This document shows positions 548 through 46,800 of a stretch of DNA of 64,000 nt, in pieces (the stretch's first letter is position 1; each line of letters begins with the position of its first letter). This DNA is from Bryobacterales bacterium. GTDB lineage: Bacteria > Acidobacteriota > Terriglobia > Bryobacterales > Bryobacteraceae. Under the pieces are notes generated by a model. The model saw only the letters and a list, made by a program, of their open reading frames with translations. It searched no databases and was not told the origin of the DNA. A program made the position numbers and the translations under genes. Location: NCBI GenBank assembly GCA_025463005.1, contig JAOAPR010000248.1:2705-66704 (forward strand). Reading direction: 5' to 3'.

Positions 548-671
548 CATGGCAAGTTTTGGAAAATTTTGCGTGCTGAGTTGCGCTCGCACACCCAACC
601 GCAAAAGAGGTTTTTAGGGGCAGAGGGTCTTGAGGTCGTTAATCATTAAGTAGTTCGTGAAAGGGATAGCT

Positions 672-3600
672 ATGCGTTCTTTTACAGTTTTTGTGTGTCT
701 GCTATTGGCAGTGTCTATAGGCTTCGGCCAGGGCGACCGCGGCACAGTGACGGGCACTGTAGCCGATCCGACTGGCGCGGCCATCGCCAACGCCCCGATC
801 GAGGCTAAGAACAAAGATACCGGAGCCGTTTACCCGACCGTGAGCACGTCCACCGGCAACTATACGTTGAGTCAATTGCCAGCGGGTAACTACGAGCTGA
901 CGGCGTCAGCTCCGGGCTTCAAGAAATTCGTCCATGAATCCGTCATCGTCCAAGTCGCGCAGGTTGTGCGTGTGGATATCGGCCTGCAATTGGGCCAAAC
1001 ATCGGACACGGTTACGGTGAGCGCCGAATCAACGCTCCTGAAAACGGAAAGCGGCGAGATGAGCCACAACGTAACCTCAGAGCGGCTTGATAACCTTCCG
1101 ATTCTTGGAATCGGCGGCGCGGCGGCAGGAAGCGCCGGTATCCGTAATCCGCTGGCCGCTACAATTCTTATCCCAGGCGTCATCTGGCAGGCGAATGCCA
1201 ACGTGAAAGTGAATGGGGCTCCGAGCAACACCGAAGTGATGCGCCTGGATGGTCAGGACGCAACCAACGGCTATTCCATCTACACTCCGATGATGACGCA
1301 GCCCAGCGTCGACTCACTCGCGGAGATTTCCATCCAGACCAGCAACTTCGCGGCAGAATACGGAACCGTCGGTGGCGGCTTGTACAACATGACCACCAAG
1401 TCGGGTTCGAATCAATTTCACGGCAGCGGCTACGATTATTTCGTCAACGAAGCGTTCAATGCCGCGCAGCCGTTTACGTCCGTGAACGGGCAGCCCAACG
1501 TCCGGGCTCGTGCTCGCCGCAATGATTATGGATTCACCTTCGGCGGCCCCGTCTGGATTCCCAAAATCTACAACGGTCACGACAAGACTTTTTTCTTTGT
1601 GAATTGGGAACAGTTCCGGGAAACTCAGCGCGCAATCTCGCCCCAGACCACCGTTCCAACCGCTGCGTTTCGCAACGGCGATTTCAGCTCGATTCTTGGA
1701 ATTCAGCGCGGCGTCGACCCACTGGGCCGCCCGATCTATGAGAATCAGATCTTTGATCCGACTACCGAAAGGCCGATCTCAGCGACCGACACCCGCCTTA
1801 TTCGCGATGCATTTCCGGGAAACAAAATTCCGTCGAGCTACTTCGATCCGGTCGCTGTAAAAATTCAGAACCTGATCCCGCTTCCAAATAACGGTGGACT
1901 GACCAACAACTTCATTCCGAACTATCCCAGCCAGCGCGTGACCACGATTCCGGCCGTCAAGGCGGACCATTCGTTCAGCTCCAAAATGAAGCTGGCCTTC
2001 TACTGGTCCAAAACCGGGACGGAAAGCGCTCTTTCGAACCAATATGGTCAGGCGGAAGGCTTCCCCGATCCCATCACTGCTGCTCGCGGAACCTACGTAA
2101 ACTCCCACACCGAGCGTTTGAATCTCGACTACACGCTCGCGCCCACGGTCCTGCTCCACATGGGAGCGGGTTTCCAGCATCTCGATTTTCAAGACCACGC
2201 AAACGTGCTGAACTATGATGCGGCCACCCAACTGGGTCTGAAGGGCGCCACCCTCAATCGCAACTTCCCGACCTTCGCCACCATGGCAACCGGCTTCGGC
2301 GGCATGGCCGCAATGGGACCGATTAACCAGAATCATTCGCGGACCATCCAGCCGACTGGAAACGCCAGCGTAAGTTGGATCCACGGCAACCACTCCTATA
2401 AGTTCGGCGGCGAGTTGCGCGTCGAAGGTGAATTGAACACCAGCTATACCAACACGAACGGTAACTACACCTTCAATGCTGCACAGACCGCACAGCCTTA
2501 TGTCGGAAGCACGACGGTTGGGGGTGGCACCATCGGCTTCCCCTATGCCAGCTTCCTGCTGGGCCGCGTGAACAACGGCAATATCGGCTCTGTATCCGAC
2601 GTGCGCCGCGGCAAGACCCAAACCGGCCTGTTCGCGCAGGATACGTGGAAAATCACGCGCAAGTTCACCTTGGATTATGGGTTGCGTTGGGACTACTCGA
2701 CCTACCTGAAGGAGCAATACGGCCGGTACTCCTCATTCGATCCGCTGCTGCCTAATCCGAGCGCCGGCAACCATCCCGGAGCCTCGATTTTTGAGGGATT
2801 CGGACCCGGGCGATGCAACTGCGACTTCGCCAAAAACTATCCGTTCGCCTTCGGGCCGCGCCTGGGCTTCGCATACCAAATGACTCCGAAAACTGTTCTT
2901 CGCGGAGGATTCGGTATCGTTTATAACGGCACGGGCAACGAGAACATGTTCAGCGTTCTGAACCCGCCCTCCCAAAACCCGTTCCAGGCGAGTAGTTTCG
3001 GCCAGCCCGGGATGCTGCTCAGCACTGGCATTCCCGTTCCCGCCAGCCAGTTGGTATGGCCCAAGTTCGATCCAGGCGTGTATCCGGCGATTAAGGGTGT
3101 GCCCAGCGCTCTGCCGCTGCCGCAGTATGACCAGAACGCGGGCCGCCCCGCTCGTCAATACCAGTGGAGCTTCGGAGTTCAGCGAGAAATCTTCCGGAAC
3201 CTGGTGGTGGAAGCCAGCTACGTGGGCAATCGCGGAGTCTGGTGGAGAGCGGATTCACTCATCAACGTCAATGCTCTGACGCCGCAGATTCTGGCTCAGT
3301 ACGGAATCGATATCAACAATGCGAGTGACCGCACCTTGTTGACGTCGCCCATCAATTCGCCAGCCGCCATTGCCAAGGGACTTAGCTTGCCGTACTCGAA
3401 TTTCCCGCCGTCCACTTTGGTGAATCAGGCGCTGCGGCCTTTCCCGCAGTTCACTACCATCAACCGGACCTTCGCGCCGCTCGGCAAGACCTGGTACGAT
3501 TCGCTGCAAGCCAAGGCGACACAGCGGCTCTCACACGGTCTGGACTTCACCTACGTCTTCACCTGGCAGAAGGAGCTCGTTTTGGGCTCTGACGCCGAGA

Positions 3601-4304
3601 TCGTAGGGCCGGGCAGTGTCGGCACCGGTTCGCAGGTCAATGATGTCTTTAACCGCGACCAGAACAAATACATATCCAGCTTCTCCCGGCCGCTCGTGAG
3701 CGTGCTCGGATTGAACTACACCGTGCCGAGGTGGAGAGGCAACAAGGTGCTGTCCTACATCGGAAGCGATTGGCAGTTCAATACCGCTTTGCAGTACGCC
3801 AGCGGTCTTCCGATCCGCGTACCTAACTCCAATAACAATCTGGCGAACCAACTCTTCCGCGGGACCTTCGCGAATCGTGTTCCCGGTGTTCCGCTGTTCC
3901 TGAAGGATCCGAACTGCGGCTGCATCGACCCGAACAAGGACTTCGTGCTCAATCCTGCTGCCTGGGTGGATCCGCCCGCGGGTCAATTCAGCTCGTCGGC
4001 TGCCTATTACAACGACTATCGGTATCAACGCCGTCCGTCCGAAGATGTGGGTGTGGCCCGCAACTTCAAGTTCGGTGAAGGCGGAAGGTATAACTTCCAG
4101 GTCCGCATGGAAATGCACAACGTCTTAAACCGGACGTACTTGAATAATCCGGTTGCGACCACGTTCAGCGGGCCGCAGACGTTCGTGACGAACACGACCA
4201 CTGGCGTCCAGACGCCCAGCGCGAACGGGTTCGGATACATCAATCCCGGCTCTACCCAAAGCCAGCCGCGCAACGGCGTGCTGGTGGGCCGATTTACGTT
4301 CTAA
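672..4304 (+). CDS. TonB-dependent receptor with N-terminal carboxypeptidase-regulatory-like domain
   Basis: ORF 657..4304, with ATG 672 preferred over GTG 657. Signal peptide MRSFTVFVCLLLAVSIGFGQ. N-terminal GTVTGTVADPTGAAIANAPIEAKN..TGNYTLSQLPAGNYEL matches the CarboxypepD_reg pattern. About 1200 aa, Gly/Asn/Tyr-rich barrel body, C-terminal ..VGRFTF with the terminal Phe typical of outer-membrane beta-barrels. Confidence 0.9.
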   Translation: MRSFTVFVCLLLAVSIGFGQGDRGTVTGTVADPTGAAIANAPIEAKNKDTGAVYPTVSTSTGNYTLSQLPAGNYELTASAPGFKKFVHESVIVQVAQVVRVDIGLQLGQTSDTVTVSAESTLLKTESGEMSHNVTSERLDNLPILGIGGAAAGSAGIRNPLAATILIPGVIWQANANVKVNGAPSNTEVMRLDGQDATNGYSIYTPMMTQPSVDSLAEISIQTSNFAAEYGTVGGGLYNMTTKSGSNQFHGSGYDYFVNEAFNAAQPFTSVNGQPNVRARARRNDYGFTFGGPVWIPKIYNGHDKTFFFVNWEQFRETQRAISPQTTVPTAAFRNGDFSSILGIQRGVDPLGRPIYENQIFDPTTERPISATDTRLIRDAFPGNKIPSSYFDPVAVKIQNLIPLPNNGGLTNNFIPNYPSQRVTTIPAVKADHSFSSKMKLAFYWSKTGTESALSNQYGQAEGFPDPITAARGTYVNSHTERLNLDYTLAPTVLLHMGAGFQHLDFQDHANVLNYDAATQLGLKGATLNRNFPTFATMATGFGGMAAMGPINQNHSRTIQPTGNASVSWIHGNHSYKFGGELRVEGELNTSYTNTNGNYTFNAAQTAQPYVGSTTVGGGTIGFPYASFLLGRVNNGNIGSVSDVRRGKTQTGLFAQDTWKITRKFTLDYGLRWDYSTYLKEQYGRYSSFDPLLPNPSAGNHPGASIFEGFGPGRCNCDFAKNYPFAFGPRLGFAYQMTPKTVLRGGFGIVYNGTGNENMFSVLNPPSQNPFQASSFGQPGMLLSTGIPVPASQLVWPKFDPGVYPAIKGVPSALPLPQYDQNAGRPARQYQWSFGVQREIFRNLVVEASYVGNRGVWWRADSLINVNALTPQILAQYGIDINNASDRTLLTSPINSPAAIAKGLSLPYSNFPPSTLVNQALRPFPQFTTINRTFAPLGKTWYDSLQAKATQRLSHGLDFTYVFTWQKELVLGSDAEIVGPGSVGTGSQVNDVFNRDQNKYISSFSRPLVSVLGLNYTVPRWRGNKVLSYIGSDWQFNTALQYASGLPIRVPNSNNNLANQLFRGTFANRVPGVPLFLKDPNCGCIDPNKDFVLNPAAWVDPPAGQFSSSAAYYNDYRYQRRPSEDVGVARNFKFGEGGRYNFQVRMEMHNVLNRTYLNNPVATTFSGPQTFVTNTTTGVQTPSANGFGYINPGSTQSQPRNGVLVGRFTF

Positions 4305-4330
4305 GTAACACGAGCAAATCGGAGGATAAG

Positions 4331-4370
4331 AGAGGCTCGCGACGCCGCAAGGCCCGCGAGCCTCTTTTTG
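4331..4370 (+). terminator. Rho-independent terminator after the receptor gene
   Basis: agaggctcgcg (4331-4341) pairs with cgcgagcctct (4355-4365) and is followed by a T5 tract, 27 nt after the stop codon. Confidence 0.7.
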
Positions 4371-4503
4371 TGAAGCGCGCAAAACGGAGCGCGGCGCCAT
4401 CGTTTGGAGCCTCATCAATGGCGGGCGCCGCGCCCTTTGCGCTCCGAATTCCTGCGGTACGATGGTTCGGGTGAATTACCCAGAACGTGGAGGACTCAAC
4501 CAA

Positions 4504-6420
4504 ATGGCAAAATCCACCAAACGCTCCGTTGGCCGCCGCGGTTTCCTGAAAGGCGCCGCCGTCGGCGCGGCCGCCCTCGCCGCGAAGCCTCAGCTCAGCC
4601 ATGCTCAAGAAAATGCCCAGCAACCCGCGGCACGCGGAGGCAGCGCCACCGCGCAGACCCCCAGCGGATCGGCCGTCGCCCGCGAAACCGGCGCGGCGCG
4701 CCCGGCAGCCAATTCGCGCGTCATCGAGAATCCCGGCTCCGATTTCATGGTGGACGTCTTCAAGACGCTCAATATCGAGTATCTCGGCGCCAACCCCGGA
4801 TCCACGTTCGAATCGCTCCACGAGTCGCTCATCAATTACGGCGACAACAAAATGCCGGAGTTCCTCACCTGCACGCACGAGGAGTGCGCGGTAGCGATGG
4901 CCCACGGGTACGCCAAGATCGAAGGCAAGCCCATGATGGCCCTGATCCACGGCGATATCGGGCTGCAGCACGCCGGCATGGCAATTTACAACGCCTATTG
5001 CGACCGCGTGCCGATTTACATGGTCGTCGGCAATCATTCCGACGGCGCTGAGCGCAATCCTGGCGTCCAGAGTTATCACAGCGCGCAGGACCTGGGCGCA
5101 CTGGTTCGCGATTACACTAAGTGGGATGATCAGCCCTATTCGCTCGGAGCGTTTGCCGAATCCGCAGTGCGCGCTTACAAAATCGCCATGACCCCGCCGA
5201 TGGGCCCGGTCCTGATCGTGGCGGGAGCCGAGATTCAATCGCATGCCATGGAGCGACCCACGCCGCGGATTCCCAAGCTGGTCATGACCTCTCCTCCGGC
5301 CGGCGATATGGCCGCGGTGAACGAAGCCGCAAAGATGCTGGTGGCGGCCGAGCGTCCCCTGATCATCCCTGAGCGCTATGCCCGCACCCCTAACGGCATC
5401 AAACTTTTGGTCGAGCTGGCGGAGCTTTTGCAAGCGCCGGTCAATAACCGCGAGCGCATGAACTTCCCGAACCGGCATCCTCTATCTGGAAACGGCGGCC
5501 AGGGGTATCAGCCCGACGTCACGCTGGCCCTGGAAGTCCAGGACATCCTGACGGAGGCCCGCACCGCGCGCACGCGCAATGCCAAGGTCATCCAGATTTC
5601 TTCCGTCTCCCTGTCGCACAAGAGCAACATCCAGGATTTCGGCCACTATGCCGACATCGATCTCGACATCGGCGCCGACGCGGAAGCGACGCTCCCCTAT
5701 CTGATCGAAGCCTGCAAGAAGCTGATGACCGCGGACCGCCAGCGCACGCTCAAGGATCGCGGCGCAAAGCTCGCGGAAGCTCATCGCAAGAACCGCGAAG
5801 CGGATGTGGAAGCGCTCTCATGGGGCTGGAACGCGAGCCCGATCAGCGTCGGGCGCATTGCCGCGGAACTGTGGCCGTTGATCAAGAACGAAGACTGGTC
5901 GTTCGTTTCGCCGCAGGGCTTTGTCGGCAACTGGCCCAATCGCATCTGGAACATGGAGAAGCATTATCAGTACATCGGCGGCCAGGGAGCCGGAGGCATG
6001 GGCTACGGGGCTCCTGCTTCGGTTGGAGCGGCGCTGGCCAATCGCAAATATGGGCGCATCTCCATCAACATTCAGACCGACGGCGATTTCAACTACTCTC
6101 CCGGCGTTTTCTGGACCGCCGCGCATCACCGCATCCCGCTGTTGAGCATCATGCACAATAACCGGGGATATCATCAGGAAGTGATGTTCGTCGAACAGAT
6201 GGCGAGCGCCCACAATCGCGGCGCGGAACGGGCGGGCATCGGCACGAAGCTGTGGGATCCGGATATTAACTACGCGTCCATCGCTAAGGGCTATGGCCTC
6301 TATGCCGAAGGTCCAATCACCGATCCCAAGGACCTCGCACCGGCGCTTGCGCGCGGCGTCGAACGGGTCAAAAAGGGCGAGCCCGTACTGATCGACGTGG
6401 TTACTCAGCCGCGCGGCTGA
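4504..6420 (+). CDS. Thiamine-diphosphate-dependent enzyme (ALS/POX superfamily) with twin-arginine signal peptide, paralog 1
   Basis: ORF 4462..6420, with ATG 4504 preferred (MAKSTKRSVGRRGFLKGAAVGAAALAAKPQLSHA|QE is a Tat motif). THEECAVAMAHGYAK carries the cofactor-activating Glu. C-terminal ThDP motif GGQGAGGMGYGAPASVGAALA..IQTDGDFNYSPG..LLSIMHNNRGY. Confidence 0.85.
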   Translation: MAKSTKRSVGRRGFLKGAAVGAAALAAKPQLSHAQENAQQPAARGGSATAQTPSGSAVARETGAARPAANSRVIENPGSDFMVDVFKTLNIEYLGANPGSTFESLHESLINYGDNKMPEFLTCTHEECAVAMAHGYAKIEGKPMMALIHGDIGLQHAGMAIYNAYCDRVPIYMVVGNHSDGAERNPGVQSYHSAQDLGALVRDYTKWDDQPYSLGAFAESAVRAYKIAMTPPMGPVLIVAGAEIQSHAMERPTPRIPKLVMTSPPAGDMAAVNEAAKMLVAAERPLIIPERYARTPNGIKLLVELAELLQAPVNNRERMNFPNRHPLSGNGGQGYQPDVTLALEVQDILTEARTARTRNAKVIQISSVSLSHKSNIQDFGHYADIDLDIGADAEATLPYLIEACKKLMTADRQRTLKDRGAKLAEAHRKNREADVEALSWGWNASPISVGRIAAELWPLIKNEDWSFVSPQGFVGNWPNRIWNMEKHYQYIGGQGAGGMGYGAPASVGAALANRKYGRISINIQTDGDFNYSPGVFWTAAHHRIPLLSIMHNNRGYHQEVMFVEQMASAHNRGAERAGIGTKLWDPDINYASIAKGYGLYAEGPITDPKDLAPALARGVERVKKGEPVLIDVVTQPRG

Positions 6421-6439
6421 GCTTGCTATCCTACAGACG

Positions 6440-6709
6440 ATGGAACTGGAACCGGCGGTCGAAAAGCGTTTCCGTCGCATCGAAGCGATCCTGCTTGAGA
6501 CTGCGGAGGGACATCGGCAGGCAAAGTTGCGCATGGATGATTTCGACAAGAAGCTCCAGGCCACCCGCAAGCTCGTCGAAGATGGCACTAAATTCGTCTC
6601 CCGCCTTTCCGTCGAAAATCGCCAACTGAGCCGCGAGGTTCGCGAAGTCAGCCAGATCCAGAAGGCTATGCTGCGCTCCAACACCAACGGCAAGAACGGC
6701 CATAGCTAG
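6440..6709 (+). CDS. Small hypothetical coiled-coil-like protein (89 aa) between the two ThDP-enzyme paralogs
   Basis: ORF with GC3-rich codon usage like its neighbours. Charged heptad-like sequence (EKRFRRIEAILLETAEGHRQAKLRMDDFDKKLQATRKLVEDG..). No clear Shine-Dalgarno sequence and no recognisable family. Confidence 0.45.
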   Translation: MELEPAVEKRFRRIEAILLETAEGHRQAKLRMDDFDKKLQATRKLVEDGTKFVSRLSVENRQLSREVREVSQIQKAMLRSNTNGKNGHS

Positions 6710-6809
6710 TCCCCGCCTCGCCCCTGACGACCCCGATTCTTTGGTCCGTATGGTGTAGAATCGATACCGGCCTGTTTTCATGGGCTGAACCGATTCAGGA
6801 GACTTCCCC

Positions 6810-8708
6810 ATGGCGAAACTCAAGAACACTTCCGTCGGTCGTCGAGGATTTTTGAAGGGGGCAGCGGCTGGAGCGGCCGTCAGCGCGGCAACGCTGGTTA
6901 CTCCCCAGCTCACTGAAGCGCAACAGCAGGGGGCAGGCCGCGGCGGACGTGGCGGCGGTCAGGGCGGCGCACCCCAACCCGACGGCTCCGCGATCGCTCG
7001 CGAAGACGGAACGGCCCGGCCCGCACCAGTCTCCCGCATCGTCGAGAACCCCGGCTCCGACTACATGTGCGACGTCATAAAGGCGCTCGGCATCGAGTAC
7101 GTCTCCTTCAATCCCGGATCGAGTTTCGAAGGTCTGCACGAATCGCTCATCAACTACACCAAGAACAATCCGGAAATCATCACCTGCACGCACGAGGAAA
7201 ATGCCGTTGCAATGGCGCACGGCTACGCCAAAGCCTGCGGGAAGCCGATGCTCGCCCTGTTGCACGGAACTATCGGCGTGCAACACGCCGCGATGGCGAT
7301 CTACAACGCTTATGGCGACCGGGTGCCGATCGTGATGATTGCCGGGGTCGGCGATACGGCCGTTCCCGCCCATACCGCCGTCGACCTTGGGGCTATGGTG
7401 CGCGATTTCGTGAAATGGGATCACCAGCCGGATACGCTGACCGGTGTCGGCCAGGCGTTGATCCGCGCGTACAAACTGGCGATGACGCCGCCTATGGCGC
7501 CCGTACTGGTCACGGTACAAGCCGAGCTGCAGATGGGTGCGATGCCGGCGAACCGTCCGCAAGTTCCCAAATTCACCATGCCCTCAGCGCCCAGCGCCGA
7601 TCTGGCATCGGTGCGGCAGATCGCCAAAGATCTGGTGAACGCGACCAATCCGCGCATTGCCGCGGGACGCGTTCGCACGCAGGAGGGAATGGACCAGTTG
7701 GTGCAACTGGCCGATCTGCTGCAATGCCCTGTTGCCGGCGGTGGCGACCGGATGACCTTCCCGAATCGCCACCCTATGGCCGGCAACGGCGCGGGCGGAG
7801 CTGCTGACGTTATATTGAGTCTCGAAGCGGGTGGCGGCGGGGGCGGCGGACGAGGCGGCGCTGCAGGAGGGAAGACTATCGTCATCAGCACCGCGGAATT
7901 GCTTGCCACGCACAACTACAACATCAACGGCAACGGCGTGAACGGCGATGTCTACATCGCAGCCGATCCGGAAGCGACTCTTCCGGCGCTGATCGAGGAA
8001 GTGCAGAAGCTCATGACTCCCGATAAGAAACGATTGTTCGAGGATCGTGGCAAGAAGCATGCCGAAGCAAACCGCGCCGCGCGCGCCACAGCCGCGGAAG
8101 CAGCATCGGTGGGCTGGAACGCCAGCCCGGTCAGCCTGGCGCGCATCGCGGCCGAACTGTGGCCGCTGATCAAGAACGAGGACTGGTCCTACGTTTCCCC
8201 GCAAAATTTCGCCGGTAACTGGGCTAACCGCTTGTGGGACATGAAGAAGATTTACCACTATCTGGGAGGGCAGGGCGCGGGCGGCATGGGTTATGGCGCT
8301 CCGGCATCGGTAGGGGCGGCGCTGGCCAACAGAAAGAATGGCCGCATCTCTATCAACATCCAGACTGACGGCGACATGAATTACTCGCCGGGCATTCTGT
8401 GGACCGCCGCGCATCACCGCATCCCGCTGCTGAGCATCATGCACAACAACCGGGGGTATCACCAGGAAGTGATGTTTATCGCGCGCGCGGCCAGCATCCG
8501 CAACCGCGGCCAGGAGAATTCGCACATCGGCACGCGCCTGATCGATCCCAACATCGACTACGCCATGATGGCCAAAGCTTACGGGATGTATAGTGAAGGA
8601 CCCATTACCGATCCCAAGGATCTGGCGCCGGCATTTAAGCGCGGCATCGAGCGGGTCAAGAAAGGCGAGCCCGTGATGATTGATGTTGTCACGCAGCCTC
8701 GCGGCTAA
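6810..8708 (+). CDS. Thiamine-diphosphate-dependent enzyme with twin-arginine signal peptide, paralog 2
   Basis: MAKLKNTSVGRRGFLKGAAAGAAVSAATLVTPQLTEA|QQ is a Tat motif. THEENAVAMAHGYAK and IQTDGDMNYSPG..LLSIMHNNRGY are present. Collinear with 4504-6420 apart from Gly/Arg-rich insertions. Confidence 0.85.
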   Translation: MAKLKNTSVGRRGFLKGAAAGAAVSAATLVTPQLTEAQQQGAGRGGRGGGQGGAPQPDGSAIAREDGTARPAPVSRIVENPGSDYMCDVIKALGIEYVSFNPGSSFEGLHESLINYTKNNPEIITCTHEENAVAMAHGYAKACGKPMLALLHGTIGVQHAAMAIYNAYGDRVPIVMIAGVGDTAVPAHTAVDLGAMVRDFVKWDHQPDTLTGVGQALIRAYKLAMTPPMAPVLVTVQAELQMGAMPANRPQVPKFTMPSAPSADLASVRQIAKDLVNATNPRIAAGRVRTQEGMDQLVQLADLLQCPVAGGGDRMTFPNRHPMAGNGAGGAADVILSLEAGGGGGGGRGGAAGGKTIVISTAELLATHNYNINGNGVNGDVYIAADPEATLPALIEEVQKLMTPDKKRLFEDRGKKHAEANRAARATAAEAASVGWNASPVSLARIAAELWPLIKNEDWSYVSPQNFAGNWANRLWDMKKIYHYLGGQGAGGMGYGAPASVGAALANRKNGRISINIQTDGDMNYSPGILWTAAHHRIPLLSIMHNNRGYHQEVMFIARAASIRNRGQENSHIGTRLIDPNIDYAMMAKAYGMYSEGPITDPKDLAPAFKRGIERVKKGEPVMIDVVTQPRG

Positions 8709-8715
8709 GGAGATT

Positions 8716-9087
8716 ATGAAGAAGCTCGTATTCGGAATTCTTGCGCCAGCCTCCGCCTTGGGCTTGCTGGCGGTTTCCGCTCTTGCACAGCAGGGTGATG
8801 CCGGCCGTGGAAAGAAGATGTTCGTCGACTACAGTTGCTACGCCTGCCACGGCTTTTCGGGTCAGAACGGCCCCGGAAGGCGGCTGGTACCGATGAAAAT
8901 GGCGAACGTCGCCTTCACAGCCTACGTCCGCAGCCCTGGCACCAACCAGATGCCGTCGTATTCGGCGAAGGTTCTTACGGATGCGCAATTGGCGGACATT
9001 TGGGCCTACATAAAGACCCTGCCGGATTCACCCGAAGCCAAGGATATCCCGCTGGTCCAGCAACTCAAGGCTGAAGCCGGAAAATAA
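8716..9087 (+). CDS. Mono-haem c-type cytochrome (class I-like), secreted
   Basis: ATG 8716 is preceded by AAGGAG and lies 7 nt after the stop of the upstream ThDP enzyme. Signal peptide MKKLVFGILAPASALGLLAVSALA. Single CYACH haem motif and a downstream ..NQMPSY.. Met ligand candidate. Confidence 0.85.
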   Translation: MKKLVFGILAPASALGLLAVSALAQQGDAGRGKKMFVDYSCYACHGFSGQNGPGRRLVPMKMANVAFTAYVRSPGTNQMPSYSAKVLTDAQLADIWAYIKTLPDSPEAKDIPLVQQLKAEAGK

Positions 9088-10244: not shown

Positions 10245-11921
10245 ATGCGATTCCTTGCCTTCCTGTTAGCTGTGTCGGCGCTCTCCGCCCAGGACGCCGG
10301 CGTGACGCATGCCGACTGGCCGCACTACGGCGGCACGCAATTTTCCTGGCGCTATAGCGCACTTGACCAGGTCAACACTTCGAACGTCAAGAATCTCCTC
10401 CCTGCGTGGATTTTCCAAACGGGCGATTACACCGAGAACCTCGGGTCCACGCCCCTTGTGGTCGATGGCGTCATGTATCTTGTCTCCGCCGGCGCGCGCG
10501 TCTTCGCGCTCGATGCAGCTAAAGGGACACTGATCTGGCAGTATCGTTATCCCACTGCTCGCCCCGGCATCGCCGGGAGCCATTCCGATTTCATCCAGAA
10601 TCGCGGGGTCGCAGTCGGCGACGGGAAGGTCTTCTTCGGAACGAAAGATAATTTCGTGGTGGCCCTGGATCAAAAAACAGGCCATGAAGCATGGAAAGTC
10701 AGCGTCGACGATCCCAAGCAGTGCGGGTGCAACATCACAGCAGCGCCGCTTATCGTCAAGGACAAGGTCATCGTCGGCGGCAACGGAGGCGATCAGGCGC
10801 ATCGCGGCTATCTCACCGCCTTCTATACAAAAACCGGACGCGTCGCCTGGCGCTGGTACGTGGTGCCCGCGCCTGGCGAAAAGGGGAATGAAACCTGGAA
10901 AGGCGACAGTTGGCGCTACGGCGGGGGTGCACCGTGGCTCACCGGCTCCTTCGATCCTGACCTCAACTTGGTCTACTGGGGCACCGGCAACGCCGCTTCC
11001 GATTTCTATGACGCTGATCGTGTCGCTTCAGGCGCCAACAAGTCAAGGGACGTGAACCTCTATACAGCCAGCGTGGTCGCGCTCGACGCCGACACCGGTA
11101 AGCTCCGCTGGCACTTCCAGGAAGTCCCTGACGATGTGTGGGATTACGATTCCGCCTATGAAGTTCTCCTGATGGACAGGCAAATCCGCGGTCAGATGCG
11201 CAAGATTCTGGTCCACATGAACAAGAGCGGCTTGACGTTCGTGCTTGACCGCGTCACCGGCGAGTTTCTTAGCTCGTTCAATGTGCCCGAGATCTTCAAT
11301 TGGATCTCGGGTGTTACTGAAGACGGCAAGCTGGTAGGCCGCAACGAACCGGAATTGGGCAAAACCAAGAACTTCTGCCCCAGTACGGCCGGCGCCAAGA
11401 GCTGGAATTCCACGGCGTACTCGCCGCGCACGGGTTTGCTTTACGTTCCTGCCTTAGAGCTCTGCATGGATATCACTTCGAACGACAGCAAGCCCAGCGA
11501 AGGCCGCTTCTACATGAATGGCGATTTCCCCAGTCGCTTGCCGCCTAATCGCGCGACGTACAGTCACGTCGACGCCTGGGATCCGGTCACCGGGAAGCGA
11601 GTCTGGAGCGTGCCGTACAAGTACATCCTGCTTTCCTCCATGCTTGCCACTGCGGGTGACTTGGTCTTTACCGGCGATCCGGAAGGCAACTTCTTCGCGC
11701 TGGACGCGCGCAGCGGCAACAAGCTGTGGAACTTCCAGACGGGCGCCGGACACCGCGGCTCGGCGATCTCGTACGCGGTCAACGGCCGGCAATACATCGC
11801 GGCGACCACCGGATGGCAACAGACATTGGTCGGCGGCGCTATCGTCGGCGTGTTCCCCGAGGAGAGTTTTCGCGCCGGATCGACGCTGGTGGTGTTCGCG
11901 CTGCCGGAGGGATCACGATGA
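10245..11921 (+). CDS. PQQ-dependent dehydrogenase, methanol/ethanol family (8-bladed propeller quinoprotein)
   Basis: Signal peptide MRFLAFLLAVSALSAQ. DWPHYGGTQFSWRYSALDQVNTSNVKNLLPAWIF, ..WKGDSWRYGGGAPW..DPDLNLVYWGTGNA.. and ..VWDYDS.. are hallmark motifs of the family. Confidence 0.9.
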   Translation: MRFLAFLLAVSALSAQDAGVTHADWPHYGGTQFSWRYSALDQVNTSNVKNLLPAWIFQTGDYTENLGSTPLVVDGVMYLVSAGARVFALDAAKGTLIWQYRYPTARPGIAGSHSDFIQNRGVAVGDGKVFFGTKDNFVVALDQKTGHEAWKVSVDDPKQCGCNITAAPLIVKDKVIVGGNGGDQAHRGYLTAFYTKTGRVAWRWYVVPAPGEKGNETWKGDSWRYGGGAPWLTGSFDPDLNLVYWGTGNAASDFYDADRVASGANKSRDVNLYTASVVALDADTGKLRWHFQEVPDDVWDYDSAYEVLLMDRQIRGQMRKILVHMNKSGLTFVLDRVTGEFLSSFNVPEIFNWISGVTEDGKLVGRNEPELGKTKNFCPSTAGAKSWNSTAYSPRTGLLYVPALELCMDITSNDSKPSEGRFYMNGDFPSRLPPNRATYSHVDAWDPVTGKRVWSVPYKYILLSSMLATAGDLVFTGDPEGNFFALDARSGNKLWNFQTGAGHRGSAISYAVNGRQYIAATTGWQQTLVGGAIVGVFPEESFRAGSTLVVFALPEGSR

Positions 11922-12679
11922 AAGCCGGTTTGCTCTTGCTCGTGATTGCCGGAGTCATGGTTGCGCAGAACCTCCCGGACGTGCTGAAGCAAGGCGAAAG
12001 CGTGTTCAATAAAACCTGCGCCACTGGATACTGTCACGGAGCGCGCGGCGCGGCAGGCGGTGCACCGCGGATCGCCGCCCGCGGGTTCGATCAAAGTTTC
12101 ATAAACAATACGGTCCAGCGCGGCGTTCCCAGCACTGCCATGCCGGCATTCGGGACTGCGCTCTCGCGCGCGGACCTGACTGCCGTGGTGGCCTATGTGG
12201 CGTCCCTAAACGGCGTCGCGAGTCCAACCATCGTGGCGAATCGCGGCGGTCCACCCAGCCCGCCAGTTACGCGGCTCACAGGGGATGCCGCTCGCGGCCG
12301 CGATCTGTTCTCGGACGCCGTCCGCAGCTTCGGGCGCTGCTCCACGTGTCATGAAATCGGAGGCATCGGCATCCCCGTCGCGATAACGATCGCCAAAGTT
12401 CCCGCTGATCCGGCCGCCTTGAAAGCGCTCGCCACTCCTCAGGTGTCGACGGCGACGGTGGGTTCCGATTCAATGCCTGCTCTGATGCTCGGCAAGAAAT
12501 CCAATGCGGTGATCTTCTATGATCTGACCACCGCGCCCCCCGTGCTGCGGACCGAATCGCCCTCGGCGGTCCAGACCAGCGATGGCAGTAACTGGCGTCA
12601 CGCCCGCGTCATCGGCTCTTACACCGACGCCGAGCTGTCGGCGATCCTCTCTTATCTCCGTACGGTAGTAAAACCCTGA
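11918..12679 (+). CDS. Dihaem c-type cytochrome, translationally coupled to the PQQ dehydrogenase
   Basis: ATG 11918 overlaps the TGA of the upstream gene (ATGA). Signal/anchor MKAGLLLLVIAGVMVAQ. Two haem motifs: CATGYCH (CX4CH, 12017-12037) and CSTCH. The long ORF start at 11726 is rejected. Confidence 0.8.
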   Translation: MKAGLLLLVIAGVMVAQNLPDVLKQGESVFNKTCATGYCHGARGAAGGAPRIAARGFDQSFINNTVQRGVPSTAMPAFGTALSRADLTAVVAYVASLNGVASPTIVANRGGPPSPPVTRLTGDAARGRDLFSDAVRSFGRCSTCHEIGGIGIPVAITIAKVPADPAALKALATPQVSTATVGSDSMPALMLGKKSNAVIFYDLTTAPPVLRTESPSAVQTSDGSNWRHARVIGSYTDAELSAILSYLRTVVKP

Positions 12680-21790: not shown

Positions 21791-22963
21791 ATGCCTAACG
21801 TCAGCCATCTCGAATGCAGCCTCTGCGCTACCCGATTTGAACCCAACCAGATTCACAACCTGTGCTCCTGCGGCGGAACGCTCTACGTGCGTTACGATCT
21901 CCCGGCGATCAAAGCAACCTGGACCCGTAACAGCCTGCGATCCGCCCGTCCCGATCTCTGGCGCTACCTTCCCATTCTTCCGCCCCAGCAGCCCGAATCC
22001 ATCGTATCTCTCGGCGAAGGCATGACCCCGCTGATCCGCGCCCGTCGCCTGGGCGGCACTATCGGCGCGCAACAGCTTTGGGTCAAAGACGAGGGGCTGA
22101 ATCCCACGGCGTCTTTCAAGGCCCGCGGCATGACTACCGCGATCACCATGGCGCGCGAGCTCGGCATCCGCAAGATCGCCATCCCGTCCGCTGGAAACGC
22201 CGCCAGCGCTGCGGCCGCCTATGCCGCCGCCGCGGGAATGGAAGCGCACATCTTCATGCCGGCCGACGTTCCCCAAGCCAACTACATCGAGTCCAAAACG
22301 CTCGGCGCAATCGTCACGCTGGTAGACGGGCTCATCAGCGATTGCGCCCGCATCGTCGCCGAGCGTAAGGATCGCGAAGGCTGGTTCGATATGAGCACCC
22401 TCAAAGAGCCCTACCGCGTCGAAGGCAAGAAAACGATGGGTTACGAAGTCGCCGAACAATTCGATTGGGAGCTGCCCGATGCGATCTTTTATCCCACCGG
22501 CGGCGGTGTCGGCATGATCGGCATGTGGAAAGCGTTCGACGAGATGGAACAGCTCGGCTGGATTTCCTCTAAGCGTCCTAAGATGATTGCCGTCCAAGCC
22601 GCGGGCTGCCAGCCGATTGTCCAGGCGTTCGAGCAGAGCGCATCGCGCGCCGAATTCTGGCAGAACGCCTCCACCCTTGCCGCTGGCCTGCGCGTTCCCA
22701 AGCCGCTCGGCGACGCGCTGATCTTGAATATCATCCGCGCGAGCAAGGGAACCGCCATCGCCATCAGCGACGAAGAAATTCTTGATGGCGGCCGGGAGCT
22801 CGCGTCCCTGGAAGGAATCTTCGCGGCGCCCGAGGGTGCTGCCTGTGTGACCGCTGCGCGCAAACTGATCGCGAATCAGTTTCTGGAACCTACCGATCGC
22901 ATCGTACTCTACAACACCGGCTCCGGCCTGAAATATCTCGATGCTTACTCGCCTCGTAAGTAG
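21791..22963 (+). CDS. thrC: Threonine synthase (short form with N-terminal Cys-rich ribbon)
   Basis: LECSLCATRF..NLCSCGGTLYVRYDL, the PLP-lysine motif NPTASFKARGM, and ..PSAGNAASAAAAYAA.. and ..YNTGSGLKY, typical of ThrC. Confidence 0.85.
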   Translation: MPNVSHLECSLCATRFEPNQIHNLCSCGGTLYVRYDLPAIKATWTRNSLRSARPDLWRYLPILPPQQPESIVSLGEGMTPLIRARRLGGTIGAQQLWVKDEGLNPTASFKARGMTTAITMARELGIRKIAIPSAGNAASAAAAYAAAAGMEAHIFMPADVPQANYIESKTLGAIVTLVDGLISDCARIVAERKDREGWFDMSTLKEPYRVEGKKTMGYEVAEQFDWELPDAIFYPTGGGVGMIGMWKAFDEMEQLGWISSKRPKMIAVQAAGCQPIVQAFEQSASRAEFWQNASTLAAGLRVPKPLGDALILNIIRASKGTAIAISDEEILDGGRELASLEGIFAAPEGAACVTAARKLIANQFLEPTDRIVLYNTGSGLKYLDAYSPRK

Positions 22964-22982
22964 GTTTGGCGTCCTTTACAAT

Positions 22983-24335
22983 GTGGGCGTGGGTATACCC
23001 CGCCGCGACTTCCTCCTCCTCGCCGCCGCCGCTGTCCTACGAGGCGAAGATCGTCCCAACCGCGACATGCTCACCCGCTCTGTTCGCCCCGAGGATCTTG
23101 AGATGCCGCTATCCGGTTTCTCGGACTACCTCACCCCGGCCGAGCATTTCTTCGTTCGTACGCACGTCTACGTTCCCTCCGTAAATCTCAACGAATGGCG
23201 CCTCAAGGTCGATGGCCAGGTCGCAACGCCGCTCGCTCTCACCATAGACGACCTGAAAAAACTGCCCGCCGTCGAACTCATCAGCGTTCTTGAATGCGCC
23301 GGTAACGGTCGCGCCTTCTACCAGCCTCCTGTGCCTGGCCTGCAATGGGGCAACGGCGCCGTCGGCAACGCGCGCTGGCGCGGGGTGCGCCTGGCCGACG
23401 TGCTCAAACGCGCCCGCTTGGAACCCTCAGCCCGCGAGATTCTTTTCGATGGCGCCGATGTTCCGCTCGGCACGATGCCGGATTTTCAACGTTCCATCCC
23501 GTTGAACAAAGCCCTTGACCCCGACACGCTTCTCGCATACGAAATGAACGGCGAGACGCTCCCCGTGAAACACGGGTTCCCTTTGCGGGTGATAGCTCCC
23601 GGGTGGGCGGGCGATTCCTGGGTCAAGTGGCTCACCTCCATTCGTGTTTTCGACCAGGAAAACGACGGTTTTTGGATGAAGAGCGCCTATCGCCACCCCG
23701 GACGGCCCGTAGCTCCCGGCACGCCTGTCCCCGCCGACCGTATGCAGCCGGTCACCAGCCTGCGTGTTAAGAGTGTCATCGCTGGGCCGCTCGATGGCGC
23801 GCAACTCGATCCCGGGCGTCCCACGACTATCCGTGGCGTGGCTTGGGGAGGTGAGCCAATTACTGCGGTCGAAGTCAGCGTCGACGGCGGCCGTTCGTGG
23901 AAACCGGCAGCGTTGCAATCCAACCAGCGCACACGCTTCGGCTGGCGCCAGTGGGAATTTCCCTGGACGCCGCCACAAGCCGCTTACTACACTATCCTCG
24001 CGAGGGCCCGCGACGCGTCTGGCAACACCCAACCGCTCGACCAGGAATGGAACCCGTCCGGCTATCTCTGGAACGTGGTTCCGCGAGTCCATGTGAATGT
24101 GGGGGACTCCGCCCCGGCGCCTTCCGTCACGTCACAAACTACACCCCAGGCCCCGCCTCCGCCGCCACCCGCGTTCAGCAACTGCCTGGTCTGTCACAAC
24201 GACGACGTCATCCACCAGCAGCGCCTTACGCGCACGCAGTGGAATGCCGAGATCAATAAGATGACCGGCTGGGGCGCCCGGGTCGACGATGCCAGCCGCA
24301 ATGCACTCCTCGATTACCTCGACAAGTTGCGCTGA
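22983..24335 (+). CDS. Sulfite-oxidase-family molybdopterin oxidoreductase fused to a C-terminal c-type cytochrome domain
   Basis: GTG 22983 or 22989 is preferred because ORF start 22941 overlaps thrC. Tat-like GIPRRDFLLLAAAAVL. ..HFFVRTH.., the Mo-ligand motif SVLECAGNGR, and ..GFPLRVIAPGW.G...VKWL.. The C-terminus has CLVCH followed by ..QQRLTRTQWNAEINKM. Confidence 0.8.
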   Translation: MGVGIPRRDFLLLAAAAVLRGEDRPNRDMLTRSVRPEDLEMPLSGFSDYLTPAEHFFVRTHVYVPSVNLNEWRLKVDGQVATPLALTIDDLKKLPAVELISVLECAGNGRAFYQPPVPGLQWGNGAVGNARWRGVRLADVLKRARLEPSAREILFDGADVPLGTMPDFQRSIPLNKALDPDTLLAYEMNGETLPVKHGFPLRVIAPGWAGDSWVKWLTSIRVFDQENDGFWMKSAYRHPGRPVAPGTPVPADRMQPVTSLRVKSVIAGPLDGAQLDPGRPTTIRGVAWGGEPITAVEVSVDGGRSWKPAALQSNQRTRFGWRQWEFPWTPPQAAYYTILARARDASGNTQPLDQEWNPSGYLWNVVPRVHVNVGDSAPAPSVTSQTTPQAPPPPPPAFSNCLVCHNDDVIHQQRLTRTQWNAEINKMTGWGARVDDASRNALLDYLDKLR

Positions 24336-43838: not shown

Positions 43839-46800
43839 ATGCGCAGGTTCACGCTCTTAGCGATACTCTCGCTCACTCTCGTCCTCTCCGCGCAAAGCGA
43901 TCGGGGCACCATCACCGGCACTGTTTCCGATCCGGCGGGAGCCGTAGTCGCCAGTGCTCCGATTCAGGCCCGGAACGTGGAAACCGGCGTGGTGTATGAG
44001 TCAGCCACATCCACCACCGGCAATTACACCATCGCGCAGCTACCGGCGGGCACGTACGAAGTCTCTGTCGGCGTGGCTGGATTCAAGAAATACACGCGGG
44101 CGGGACTGGCGGTCCAGGTGGCGCAGACCATGCGCATTGACGTAACGCTGGAAGTGGGTGCGACCACCGATTCGGTAACGATCACCGAGGCCGCGCCGCT
44201 ACTCCGGACTGAAAGCGGCGAGTTGAGCCACAACGTCAGCGTAAAGCAGATGGACGACCTTCCAATCCTGGGGATCGGAGCGGGGCAAGCGGGGAGCGCG
44301 GGCATTCGCAATCCCATGGCTATGGTGCAGTTGATCCCAGGCACGGTGTGGACTCCGAACTCGGTGGTCCGCGTCAATGGAGCTCCGGCCAATTCGCAAT
44401 CGTTCCGCGTGGAGGGTCAGGAGGCCGGCAACACCGGCCTGCCCGGAACTCCAGCGCAAACCCAGCCGAGCGTCGATGCCATTCAGGAGGTCGCGATTCA
44501 GACCAGCAACTACGCGGCGGAGTATGGTCAGGTCGGGGGTGGCGTGTTCAATGTCACCATGCGATCGGGCGTCAATCGGTTTCACGGCAGCGCTTACGAT
44601 TATTTCGTGAACGAAGTCTTTAACGCGGGGAATCCGTTCACCTTAGCCCCGGCAGGCACGGGAAATCCGCGCTCGGTGGCGCGGCGGCATGATTACGGCT
44701 TCACCCTGGGCGGTCCGGTTGCGATTCCGAAGGTGTATGACGGCCACGACAAAACTTTCTTCTTCTTCAACTTCGAGCAGTATCGCGAGAGGGTCACGTT
44801 CAACAATCAATTTCAGACCGTGCCCACAGTGCCCTATCGCGCGGGTGACTTCACGACGGCGCTTACCAATCGCACTCTGACGAATGCGGCCGGTCCCATC
44901 CTGGATCCCGCCGGGCGCACCATGATCGAGGGGATGATCTACGATCCGAGCAGCACGAAGCTCGGCCCAGACGGCCGCAGTTACCGGGATCCATTCGTGG
45001 GCAACAAAATTCCATCCGCTGCATTCGATCCCGTGGCAGCGAAAATCCAAGCTCTGTTCCCCCCCAGCCGAACGGGGTCAATGCGACTTCGCTGACCAAC
45101 AATTATCTGAATCCTTACCAGGGTTCACGGATCACTACGGTTCCCTCAGTCAAGATTGACCAGGCGTTCGGATCGAAGGGGAAGCTTTCTTTCTACTACC
45201 AGCGCACCAAAACCGCAGCCCCAAGGAGCACCACGTTCGGTGTAGCCGACGGGCTTCCTGAGCCGATTACCACCGGGATCGGCACATATGACACGGCTCC
45301 GCTGTATCGGCTGAATTATGATTACACGCTGACGCCGACGATCCTGGTGCATTTCGGCGGAGGCTATCGCGCGAACTACCTCAATGCTCCCACTGTGGAC
45401 GAGAATGGCGATCCAGTGATTTTCAATCCGGTGCAGGAACTGGGCTTGAAGGGCGGGCTTCAGAATAAGTGGTTCCCGCCCATGTCGGGATTCCTGGCGG
45501 CGAATGGCACGGGCGGGATGAAGAACATCGGGTCGGCTTCGTCGATCAATAACGTTCAGTACATCACGCAGAGCCCGTCGTTTAATGCGAACATGACCTG
45601 GGTCAAGAGCAGCCATACGTACAAGTTCGGTGCGGAATTCCGCACCGAGGGGTATCCGCCCATCGTCGAGGGGAACACCGACGGCAGTTACGTGTTCAGT
45701 GCTGCGCAAACCGGCCAGCCCTTCCAAAACACCGCCGCGAACGGGTTTAACGTCGGATTCGGATACGCCAGCTTCCTGCTGGGCCAAGTCAATTCGGTCA
45801 GCATCAACAACCCCACGCGTCCGCGGATCGGGAAAAAACAATTTGGCATCTACGCCCAGGACTCCTGGAAGGTGACGCGTAAATTCACGCTGGATTACGG
45901 AGTGCGATACGACTATTCGACGTACTTGCGGGAGCAGTATGGCCGGGCGCCCGGTTTCTCGGCGACCACATCGAATCCCACCGCAGGGAACATGCCGGGT
46001 GCCGCGATTTATGATGGTTCCGGCCCAGGCCGGTGCAACTGCAACTTTGCCCACAACTATCCGTTCGCTGGTGCGCCCCGGCTGGGAGCCGCCTATCAGA
46101 TCAACACCAAGACCGTCGTTCGCGCCGGGTTCGGCATCGTCTACGCCGGCACGGAAGCGAACGCCAACGTCTCCGCCGGGCTGGCTCCCTCTGCGACGAA
46201 CAACACCGCTTCAGTTTTCGGGTCGCCCATTACGACTCTTGCCGTAGGTATCCCGGCCGCGCTCCTGCCTCCGGCTTGGCCGAATTATAATCCGGGCCAG
46301 TTTCCGACCGGTGCGCCTACTCCGGGAGCAGGTCCGCCCCTGATGGATGCAAACGCGGGGCGGCCGGCGCGGCAATATCAGTGGAGCGTCAGCCTGGGGC
46401 GCGAGGTGTTGCGGGATCTTGTCGTCGAGGTGGCTTACGTTGCGAATCGAGGCGTGTGGTGGCAGGCGCCCGGGCTGATCAATCTTAACGCGCTCAGTTA
46501 TGACCGGCTGAAGTCATTCAACCTCGATCCGGTGAACAACGCGGCCGACCGGACGTTGCTGACCGGATTCCTCAGCGCCGTCAGTGCCGCGCAACGCGGA
46601 TTCCGGGCGCCCTATTCGACGTTCCCGCTCAGTCAGACCGTGGCACAATCGCTGCGACCATTTCCGCAGTTCACAACCATTCCGGTGTATTGGGACCCGC
46701 TGGGCAAAACCTAGTACGACGGGCTGCAGATCAAAACCACCAAGCGGTTTTCGCACGGCTTGTCCCTGGTGAGCACGTTCTCCTGGCAGAAGTCGCTCTC

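Follow-up and report, generated by a model that had tools for sequence, protein, structure and literature searches.

Described ThDP enzymes and the locus

Enzymes of the thiamine diphosphate (ThDP) superfamily that includes acetolactate synthase (ALS), pyruvate oxidase (POX) and benzoylformate decarboxylase (BFDC) are, to our knowledge, cytoplasmic wherever they have been characterised. The known oxidative members, such as PoxB of Escherichia coli, which converts pyruvate to acetate and CO2, need FAD, and the unrelated pyruvate:ferredoxin oxidoreductases (PFORs) need Fe-S clusters. A number of periplasmic dehydrogenases use as electron acceptor a small class I cytochrome encoded next to them, as in the pyrroloquinoline quinone (PQQ) methanol dehydrogenase/cL, PQQ alcohol dehydrogenase/c550 and SorAB systems. 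Here we describe a locus in a 64,000-nucleotide stretch of contig JAOAPR010000248.1 of a Bryobacterales bacterium (the window), in which the genes for two ThDP enzymes with predicted twin-arginine translocation (Tat) leaders, ThDP1 and ThDP2, are followed by a gene for a mono-haem cytochrome c, all three on the + strand between 4504 and 9087. We consider it probable that this module is a periplasmic ThDP-dependent (2-oxoacid or aldehyde):cytochrome c oxidoreductase with a dedicated soluble cytochrome c as its acceptor. A periplasmic ThDP enzyme working with the adjacent cytochrome had been proposed in a preliminary description of the window, and it is supported by a leader kept throughout the clade, by gene adjacency and by co-divergence of the partners, its function being read from sequence and gene context.

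Like the ThDP proteins of the module, E. coli PoxB (EC 1.2.5.1) and the POX of L. plantarum belong to the three-domain ThDP superfamily, and the chemistry proposed here would be similar to theirs, namely oxidative decarboxylation of a 2-oxoacid via an enamine and an acyl-ThDP to the acid, with the electrons delivered to the respiratory chain. PoxB, however, is a cytoplasmic, peripherally membrane-bound enzyme that carries FAD and a C-terminal lipid-activated tail and reduces ubiquinone, whereas the module has Tat leaders, no Gly-rich FAD loop, no tail and a soluble cytochrome c partner. BFDC (MdlC) and benzaldehyde lyase (BAL) resemble the module in having no flavin, as predicted for its enzymes, in the BFDC Glu47, His70 and Ser26 equivalents present in the window proteins, and in that some members of the Tat-leader clade (the Tat clade) are found among aromatic-catabolism genes; they differ in being cytoplasmic and non-redox, with hydrophobic pockets and about 20% identity to ThDP1 and ThDP2, and the Gly-Ala-Leu of the BFDC pocket is His-Gln-Glu in the Tat clade. 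PFOR offers a mechanistic analogy, since hydroxyalkyl-ThDP is there oxidised in sequential one-electron steps through a radical and by a metal centre, with no flavin, but its domain architecture is unrelated, it is cytoplasmic, and it uses three [4Fe-4S] clusters and CoA. The PQQ methanol and ethanol dehydrogenases with cL or c550, as well as SorAB, follow the same operon logic of a periplasmic dehydrogenase gene followed by a gene for a small Sec-exported mono-haem cytochrome, and Tat likewise exports SorA in its cofactor-loaded form; the cofactor in these systems is PQQ or molybdopterin, ThDP being undescribed in that role.

ThDP1 (4504..6420, + strand) encodes a predicted Tat-exported enzyme of 638 aa that was placed in the PRK08327-like branch of the DC/BFDC-ALS-POX superfamily. 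Its ribosome-binding site (RBS), GGAGGA, lies 8 nt 5' of the ATG, and the 638-aa start agrees with NCBI record MCU1339864.1; identical sequences are present in a Bryobacterales metagenome-assembled genome (MAG; JWO19_5445 to 5448), where ThDP1 is named 'hypothetical protein'. The second predicted Tat-exported ThDP enzyme, ThDP2 (6810..8708, + strand, 632 aa), is preceded by the RBS AGGAGA. It is followed by the gene for a class I cytochrome c of 123 aa (8716..9087, + strand), with a Sec leader at residues 1-24, a single CxxCH motif, CYACH (residues 41-45, nt 8836-8850), and Met79 as the distal ligand in QMPSY (nt 8947-8961). The two paralogs, their Tat leaders and the cytochrome had all been listed in the preliminary description and were all recovered; its placing of the cytochrome 7 nt after ThDP2 behind an AAGGAG was also borne out, the ATG lying 7 nt past the ThDP2 stop and the AAGGAG overlapping that stop.

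The assignment of both proteins to the ThDP enzymes was confirmed with Pfam. TPP_enzyme_N scored 64.3 bits in ThDP1 and 77.5 bits in ThDP2 (cutoff 26.8) and TPP_enzyme_C was likewise above threshold (88.2 and 80.6 bits), while TPP_enzyme_M, at 29.9 and 17.7 bits, was below its cutoff of 30.4, in ThDP1 just so. The central domain is present by fold: the AF2 model of ThDP1 (pLDDT 90.8, pTM 0.88) has the full three-domain architecture and is disordered only at residues 1-47. In a Foldseek search the best matches to this model were BAL/formolase, glyoxylate carboligase (GCL), acetohydroxyacid synthase (AHAS), 2-hydroxyacyl-CoA lyase (HACL) and BFDC, with TM scores of 0.66-0.84 over ~590 columns and 17-22% identity, and the search returned no relative closer than ~20% identity; by sequence, the nearest solved proteins were BFDC and BAL. 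Every NCBIfam equivalog model scored far under its cutoff for both proteins. The best, NF006203 (PRK08327), matched end to end with 256.3 bits for ThDP1 and 202.1 bits for ThDP2 against a cutoff of 456; the pyruvate oxidase model NF006377 gave 84.8 and 75.8 bits (cutoff 742) and the BFDC model NF005485 148.9 and 169.7 bits (cutoff 493). By these curated models ThDP1 and ThDP2 are not members of the PoxB, BFDC or PRK08327 families, and sequence comparison places their clade as a sister to NF006203/PRK08327. That family, their best curated match, is itself uncharacterised, and the NF006203-type sister group lacks the Tat leader and the NNRGYHQEVM signature, with no cytochrome gene beside these cytoplasmic relatives in the loci examined (0/3). 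The earlier statement that no characterised example was known thus held against the NCBIfam models, and in full-text literature searches neither a periplasmic or Tat-exported ThDP enzyme nor the genes of the cultured strain RW1 discussed below were found to have been described.

Tat leaders and the cytochrome partner across the clade

Both leaders contain the motif SVGRRGFLKG, followed by an Ala-rich h-region and an AxA-like site. In ThDP1 the signal peptide covers residues 1-34 (4504..4605, + strand), with the motif at 8-17 and predicted cleavage between SHA and QE, and in ThDP2 residues 1-37 (6810..6920, + strand), with predicted cleavage between TEA and QQ. Both pass the TIGR01409 cutoff of 16.7 bits (26.4 for ThDP1, 24.4 for ThDP2) and fall slightly under the 22.7 cutoff of Pfam TAT_signal (20.6 and 18.9). 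Since homologs that generally lacked the leader would have spoken against export, its distribution was followed in 78 related genome loci, from Acidobacteriota except for one bin labelled Bordetella, which held 101 ThDP homologs. The RR motif was found upstream of the PYR domain in 94/101, and the exceptions were mostly truncated or frameshifted. Among full-length database proteins the RR leader was present in 115/117 from the ThDP1 search and 95/97 from the ThDP2 search. Ten full-length 50%-identity representatives, at 42-64% identity, came out of an exhaustive search through 1.84 billion cluster representatives, and all of them had the leader (10/10); at 41% identity and below, proteins start directly at the PYR domain and an RR motif was seen in 0/50, these leaderless sister relatives having 30-41% identity.

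A second trait is divided in the same manner. The signature NNxGYxxE[VLI]M was found in 114/117 and 94/97 Tat-clade matches of the ThDP1 and ThDP2 searches, respectively, and in 0/50 of the cytoplasmic relatives. As leader and signature split the clade from its cytoplasmic relatives alike, predicted export appears to be an ancestral, maintained trait of a distinct branch within an otherwise cytoplasmic and uncharacterised family, so that the Tat leaders reported earlier are a property of the clade and not of this locus. In long-read (MFD) MAG assemblies several ThDP or cytochrome genes (L018, L030, L044, L055 and L095) appear to be broken by frameshifts, probably through errors of assembly and not as pseudogenes, and part of the homologs scored as having no RR motif or no cytochrome can be traced to them.

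The window cytochrome, whose leader ends in ALA before QQ, matched the Pfam models Cytochrome_CBB3 (36.1 bits) and Cytochrom_C (35.6 bits). In an adjacency scan based on the position of the CxxCH motif, for which 98/101 ThDP genes had enough flank, a mono-haem CxxCH open reading frame (ORF) adjoined 60/98 ThDP genes (55 downstream and 5 upstream) in 47/78 loci. Several ThDP genes with no adjoining cytochrome open a ThDP-ThDP-cytochrome tandem like that of the window, and many loci contain two complete ThDP-cytochrome modules. The linkage extends to the edge of the clade: in the three most divergent representatives (42-46% identity) the cytochrome lies immediately 3' of the ThDP gene in 3/3, with a gap of 13 nt in L083 and with overlapping stop and start codons in L084 and L085. 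L085 stands for the Rhizorhabdus (Sphingomonas) wittichii RW1 chromosome, in which the ThDP enzyme is ABQ67889.1 (presumably Swit_1526) and the cytochrome Swit_1527. A member of the ThDP2 lineage with an adjoining cytochrome was also found on the read-set contig L094, and UniRef assigns that ThDP protein to Solibacter usitatus Ellin6076. The expectation that an adjacent cytochrome is generally kept is thus supported, with the most divergent members and an alphaproteobacterium included.

The partner cytochromes also appear to have evolved together with their enzymes. All 63 of them, that of RW1 included, form one family with the signature CxxCHG..GQGG...YVR.P...MP.Y...D..L.DI.AY...LP, and pairwise identities among the cytochromes follow those among their ThDP partners (Pearson r = 0.81, 60 pairs). 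In loci with two modules, the partner cytochrome of the orthologous ThDP enzyme in another genome was, for 22/24 cytochromes, a nearer relative than the second cytochrome of their own locus. Because these modules match by ThDP type and not by locus, the co-divergence seen in the alignments is not explained by shared species history. In a neighbour-joining tree adjacency was distributed throughout the Tat clade, with losses in a few subclades; ThDP-cytochrome adjacency is, on this tree, ancestral in the clade, and the family of the window cytochrome is the predicted dedicated partner of the Tat-clade ThDP enzymes. A further case was found in L076 (3170-5967), where a separate Tat-tagged ThDP enzyme (26% identity, ISRRRLL leader) stands beside a regular module and the 3' end of its gene overlaps the start of a gene for a 301-aa cytochrome with three CxxCH motifs; this is a putative independent ThDP/cytochrome c lineage. 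In three loci of a ThDP subclade with no adjoining cytochrome (L046, L049 and L050), a large membrane protein, CcmF-like by eye, is encoded ~2 kb downstream.

Active site, proposed mechanism and alternatives

The activating glutamate of the THEE motif, Glu126 in ThDP1 (4879..4881, + strand) and Glu129 in ThDP2, was invariant in 69/69 aligned relatives and aligns with BFDC Glu47. Also invariant in this 69-sequence family alignment were the Mg-binding residues Asp526-Gly527 and Asn553. In ThDP1 the diphosphate/Mg-binding motif DGD...NN (Asp526 to Asn553) and, after it, the clade-specific active-site signature HNNRGYHQEVM (551-561) together take up 6079..6186 (+ strand); the spacing from Asp to the second Asn is 27. 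The motif had previously been read as GDG..NN, of which the DG...NN part stands, but the first Gly of GDG is not kept and is replaced by Thr, the motif reading TDGD...NN (T-D-G-D).

The residues that follow set the clade apart. In the alignment with BFDC, the clade-specific residues His557, Gln558 and Glu559 occupy the positions of Gly459, Ala460 and Leu461, and Met561 that of Trp463; Ala460 and Leu461 line the substrate pocket of BFDC. We take the spacing of NNxGYxxE to match that of the pyruvate decarboxylase (PDC) motif NN(Y/D)GYTIE, the Glu of which (473 in Zymomonas mobilis PDC, 477 in yeast PDC) is catalytic in 2-oxoacid decarboxylation. The equivalent of BFDC His70 is His149, which was found in 16/19 sequences of the Tat clade and in 48/50 of the cytoplasmic group, and that of BFDC Ser26 is Ser100, the serine of NPGS, which is found in ThDP1, in ThDP2 and in 13/19 of the Tat clade; the invariant Ser108 had been a candidate for this position and was ruled out, the NPGS serine being Ser100. 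The region of BFDC His281 does not align by sequence with ThDP1 or ThDP2.

We propose that each ThDP enzyme would fold and load ThDP and Mg2+ in the cytoplasm and would then be exported by Tat, as its leader predicts, and that the cytochrome, judging from its leader and CxxCH motif, would be exported unfolded by Sec and receive its haem in the periplasm. There the ThDP ylide would attack a carbonyl substrate, most likely a 2-oxoacid, which would be decarboxylated, or alternatively an aldehyde, which would be deprotonated, both giving the enamine/carbanion (Breslow) intermediate. ThDP enamines are readily oxidised by one-electron acceptors such as ferricyanide and the Fe-S clusters of PFOR. Instead of being protonated and released, as in BFDC or PDC, the intermediate may be oxidised by ferricytochrome c in two one-electron steps via a ThDP radical, as in PFOR; hydrolysis of the acyl-ThDP would yield a carboxylic acid, and the reduced cytochrome c would pass its electrons to a terminal oxidase, so that oxidation could be coupled to respiration without uptake of the substrate. 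No flavin or Fe-S relay would take part in this electron path.

A number of points weigh against this proposal. If neither a flavin nor an Fe-S relay takes part, transfer would have to be direct, with electrons passing from the buried C2-alpha of ThDP to a haem on another protein, and we know of no ThDP enzyme that reduces a physiological cytochrome directly. The closest solved relatives (BAL, BFDC and GCL) are non-redox lyases or decarboxylases, and the polar His-Gln-Glu pocket is unlike the hydrophobic pocket of BFDC. In 38/101 ThDP genes, including entire subclades, no adjacent cytochrome is found, and for this reason the cytochrome must be either supplied in trans or not always needed. The substrate assignment, which draws on heterogeneous neighbourhoods, is weak, and literature searches for the RW1 tags Swit_152x/153x were empty.

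We suggest tentatively, and with less confidence than the oxidoreductase reading itself, that this might be the first Tat-exported ThDP family and the first case in which a c-type haem protein oxidises the ThDP-bound enamine directly, without a relay by flavin or Fe-S clusters. If true, it would mean a new cellular location for ThDP, a new type of Tat cargo and a new electron route out of the Breslow intermediate; ThDP would join the cofactors carried across the membrane by Tat, and a new class of respiratory dehydrogenase, a '2-oxoacid (or aldehyde):cytochrome c oxidoreductase', would let cells gain electrons from organic acids outside the cytoplasm, perhaps arylglyoxylates that stem from lignin or tannin, with no need to import them. 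Members of the family abound in Bryobacteraceae, Solibacteraceae and other Acidobacteriota, groups that dominate many soils and peatlands, and the module could be an unseen entry of organic-acid or aromatic carbon into respiration. Annotation would profit at once, these genes being named at present 'acetolactate synthase large subunit' or 'hypothetical protein'. The hypothesis can be put to a direct test, since the cultured R. wittichii RW1 carries the module (ABQ67889.1, Swit_1527), and S. usitatus Ellin6076 is a second candidate, as UniRef assigns P0357 to this strain.

Among the alternatives, the nearest to our proposal keeps the periplasmic oxidoreductase and makes aldehydes its substrates: PQQ alcohol dehydrogenases would release aldehydes, and these would be oxidised to acids via ThDP and cytochrome c by what would be a periplasmic aldehyde dehydrogenase. 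A PQQ dehydrogenase and cytochrome do lie ~1.2 kb downstream in the window, an arrangement shared by L002 and L079-L081, and L069-L073, L007, L016, L021 and L028 have PQQ enzymes that are convergent or close by; moreover, the fold is nearest to BAL/formolase, which act on aldehydes, and oxidation of aldehydes by ThDP enzymes with artificial acceptors is established chemistry. Yet opposite-strand genes part the PQQ gene from the module, most loci lack it (as family F7 it occurs in 8/78), and with many PQQ enzymes per genome it could well lie nearby by chance. In addition, 2-oxoacid decarboxylation is favoured by the BFDC His70 equivalent and the PDC-like GYxxE motif, and we regard aldehydes as the less likely substrates.

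It is rather unlikely that the proteins are non-redox periplasmic lyases, decarboxylases or carboligases of the BAL/BFDC kind, with the cytochrome c serving other dehydrogenases and linked to the ThDP genes by genomic habit. The non-redox character of the closest solved structures, the homologs with no adjoining cytochrome (the same 38/101) and the lack of any evident redox cofactor besides ThDP would fit such a view. Against it stand the tight gene coupling, with an RBS that overlaps the upstream stop here and stop/start overlaps in L084 and L085, the single dedicated cytochrome family that co-diverges by ThDP paralog type and not by genome, and a linkage that spans the Acidobacteriota and an alphaproteobacterium, is repeated in the independent Tat-ThDP lineage of L076 and is missing from the three cytoplasmic relatives examined.

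We think it unlikely, to a slightly greater degree, that the module holds a PoxB/POX-type flavoenzyme, in which an FAD in the middle domain takes the two enamine electrons and relays them to cytochrome c. PoxB and the L. plantarum POX, the sole characterised oxidative members of the superfamily, are both FAD-dependent, the FAD-binding GCL and AHAS were among the top structural matches, and flavoproteins are commonly exported by Tat; the preliminary description had itself allowed for a flavin. When the loop that follows the first middle-domain strand was compared, however, the FAD- or ADP-binding relatives were found to carry a Gly-rich sequence (GGG in cyclohexane-1,2-dione hydrolase, GKG in oxalyl-CoA decarboxylase and GRG in HACL), whereas ThDP1 has PER with a 3-residue deletion and ThDP2 GRV. 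GxG was found at this loop in no Tat-clade representative, positions 290 and 293 being E/G/D/Q and A/V. No conserved Cys cluster motif was found in the ThDP1/ThDP2 family either, and because both the FAD/ADP loop and a conserved Cys cluster are absent, a flavin or Fe-S relay in the predicted enzymes is, by sequence, unlikely; the missing dinucleotide loop speaks against the earlier suggestion of a flavin. The marginal TPP_enzyme_M scores, the pyruvate oxidase model at 85 and 76 bits against 742, and the nearest sequence relatives, BFDC and BAL, which have no FAD, point in the same direction, as does the lack of a PoxB-like C-terminal lipid-binding tail, the PP domain ending 6 residues or less from the C-terminus.

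The two paralogs had been described as an enzyme pair, and they might form an obligate heteromer with active sites across their interface and one cytochrome between them, which we hold to be very improbable. ThDP active sites sit at dimer interfaces, and the same-strand tandem of the window recurs in L003 and L079-L081, with analogous tandems in L007, L021, L023 and L082. ThDP1 and ThDP2 are 61% identical (BLASTP); ThDP2 has a loop shorter by 7 residues after residue ~179 and a Gly-rich insert in the middle domain. In the neighbour-joining tree ThDP2 groups with a copy from L003 and the representative P0128 on a deep branch, by which a recent tandem duplication was ruled out. Orthologs of ThDP1 in L001 and L002 stand directly before a cytochrome gene, the product of which is 80-85% identical to the window cytochrome, with no ThDP2, and members of the ThDP2 lineage occur singly with a cytochrome c, for instance on contig L094. 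Both paralogs retain every catalytic residue and a Tat leader of their own, most two-copy loci have one cytochrome per ThDP copy, and in the window an insertion with an unrelated ORF parts the two genes. On the tree and these arrangements ThDP1 and ThDP2 are old, independent lineages, each of which pairs alone with a cytochrome elsewhere, and not an obligate pair; they would be two enzymes with different active-site loops which share one cytochrome here, and not subunits of one enzyme, and they probably have different substrates.

That the proteins are cytoplasmic, as is the rest of the superfamily, with an RR motif by chance or a translation start further downstream, is scarcely credible given a leader that passes TIGR01409 with its n-region, RR, h-region and AxA architecture, that is kept down to 42% identity and in the 26%-identical paralog but in 0/50 cytoplasmic sisters, and that is followed by the PYR domain ~75 residues downstream, with good RBSs before the annotated ATGs, no alternative start with an RBS, and several members called Tat-signal proteins by the NCBI pipeline.

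Neighbouring genes and the rest of the window

The genes around related modules give a weak hint that the predicted substrates are aromatic, lignin- or tannin-derived 2-oxoacids such as arylglyoxylates. Genes for tannases/feruloyl esterases adjoin the module in 13 loci, intradiol dioxygenase subunit genes lie directly 3' of it in L064 and L066, and LigB, LigXa and amidohydrolase genes are found near it in L082; in RW1 hydrolase, thiolase, CoA-ligase and Rieske dioxygenase genes lie 3' of the module. Genes for LigAB/LigXa or UbiD also stand beside cytoplasmic relatives. The RW1 module (L085 5405-8324, CP000699.1 ~1.694-1.697 Mb) is further marked by a multi-transmembrane ORF (178/198 aa) that ends exactly at the start of the ThDP gene and could encode a membrane anchor or a third subunit; the module adjoins a serine recombinase gene there and resembles a catabolic island.

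Upstream, the module is bounded by a terminator-like hairpin with a U-run (4328..4374, + strand), which lies between the gene for a TonB-dependent receptor (657-4304) and ThDP1. It has 17 bp, a GCAA-type apical loop and then UUUUU, with a folding energy of -32 kcal/mol (z = -3.9, RNA fold), and equal stability was reached in 0/200 shuffles. A simple promoter/terminator scan gave nothing useful and missed this hairpin, because its stem is interrupted. The preliminary description had noted that the cluster follows the receptor on the same strand, and the receptor gene is indeed upstream, but the hairpin intervenes and the neighbour is not conserved, the closest relatives having kinase and toxin-antitoxin genes in its place; the receptor was therefore rejected as a part of the module.

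Between ThDP1 and ThDP2 a gap of 390 nt holds an ORF of 89 codons, orf89 (6440..6709, + strand), coiled-coil-like, on an insertion of ~270 nt. It had no Pfam match, and no tblastn match in the 78 related loci. The insertion is absent from the closest relatives, L003 and L079, in which the spacer is shorter and unrelated, and orf89 is probably not part of the module. The consecutive accessions and locus tags of the MAG leave one record between ThDP1 and ThDP2, so orf89 may be annotated there, presumably as JWO19_5446.

Downstream, a gene for a PQQ dehydrogenase of the methanol/ethanol family (10245-11921, + strand; 506 bits against a cutoff of 480) is followed by one for a cytochrome of 254 aa with two CxxCH motifs (11915-12679, + strand), the start of which overlaps the dehydrogenase stop. 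On the 'acido-empty-quinoprotein' model the dehydrogenase scored 403 bits, short of the cutoff of 650. In its WDYDS stretch an Asp stands two residues past the catalytic Asp, which we take to be a lanthanide-type (XoxF/PedH) signature. The pair had been reported to lie 1.2 kb further on, and it does begin 1158 nt after the cytochrome c gene; it is not a conserved partner, however, and beyond the intervening opposite-strand genes it forms a separate module. Outside close relatives a ThDP-PQQ neighbourhood recurs in just a few loci, and the PQQ dehydrogenase is not supported as an obligate partner, being conserved only in near relatives and belonging to a separate transcription unit.

A survey of the window from 16 to 52 kb revealed no Tat, Ccm, oxidase or thiamine genes, and up to ~52.5 kb the rest of the window holds genes unrelated to the module. 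At 21791-24335 (+ strand) a PALP (PLP-dependent) gene overlaps by 23 nt a gene for a sulfite-oxidase-like molybdoenzyme (Oxidored_molyb + Mo-co_dimer), an unusual pairing. At 43839-46714 (+ strand) two consecutive ORFs of 418 and 455 aa correspond to the N-terminal and the central/C-terminal parts of one TonB-type receptor (CarboxypepD_reg/OMP_b-brl_4), its gene probably being a pseudogene with a frameshift or else misassembled.

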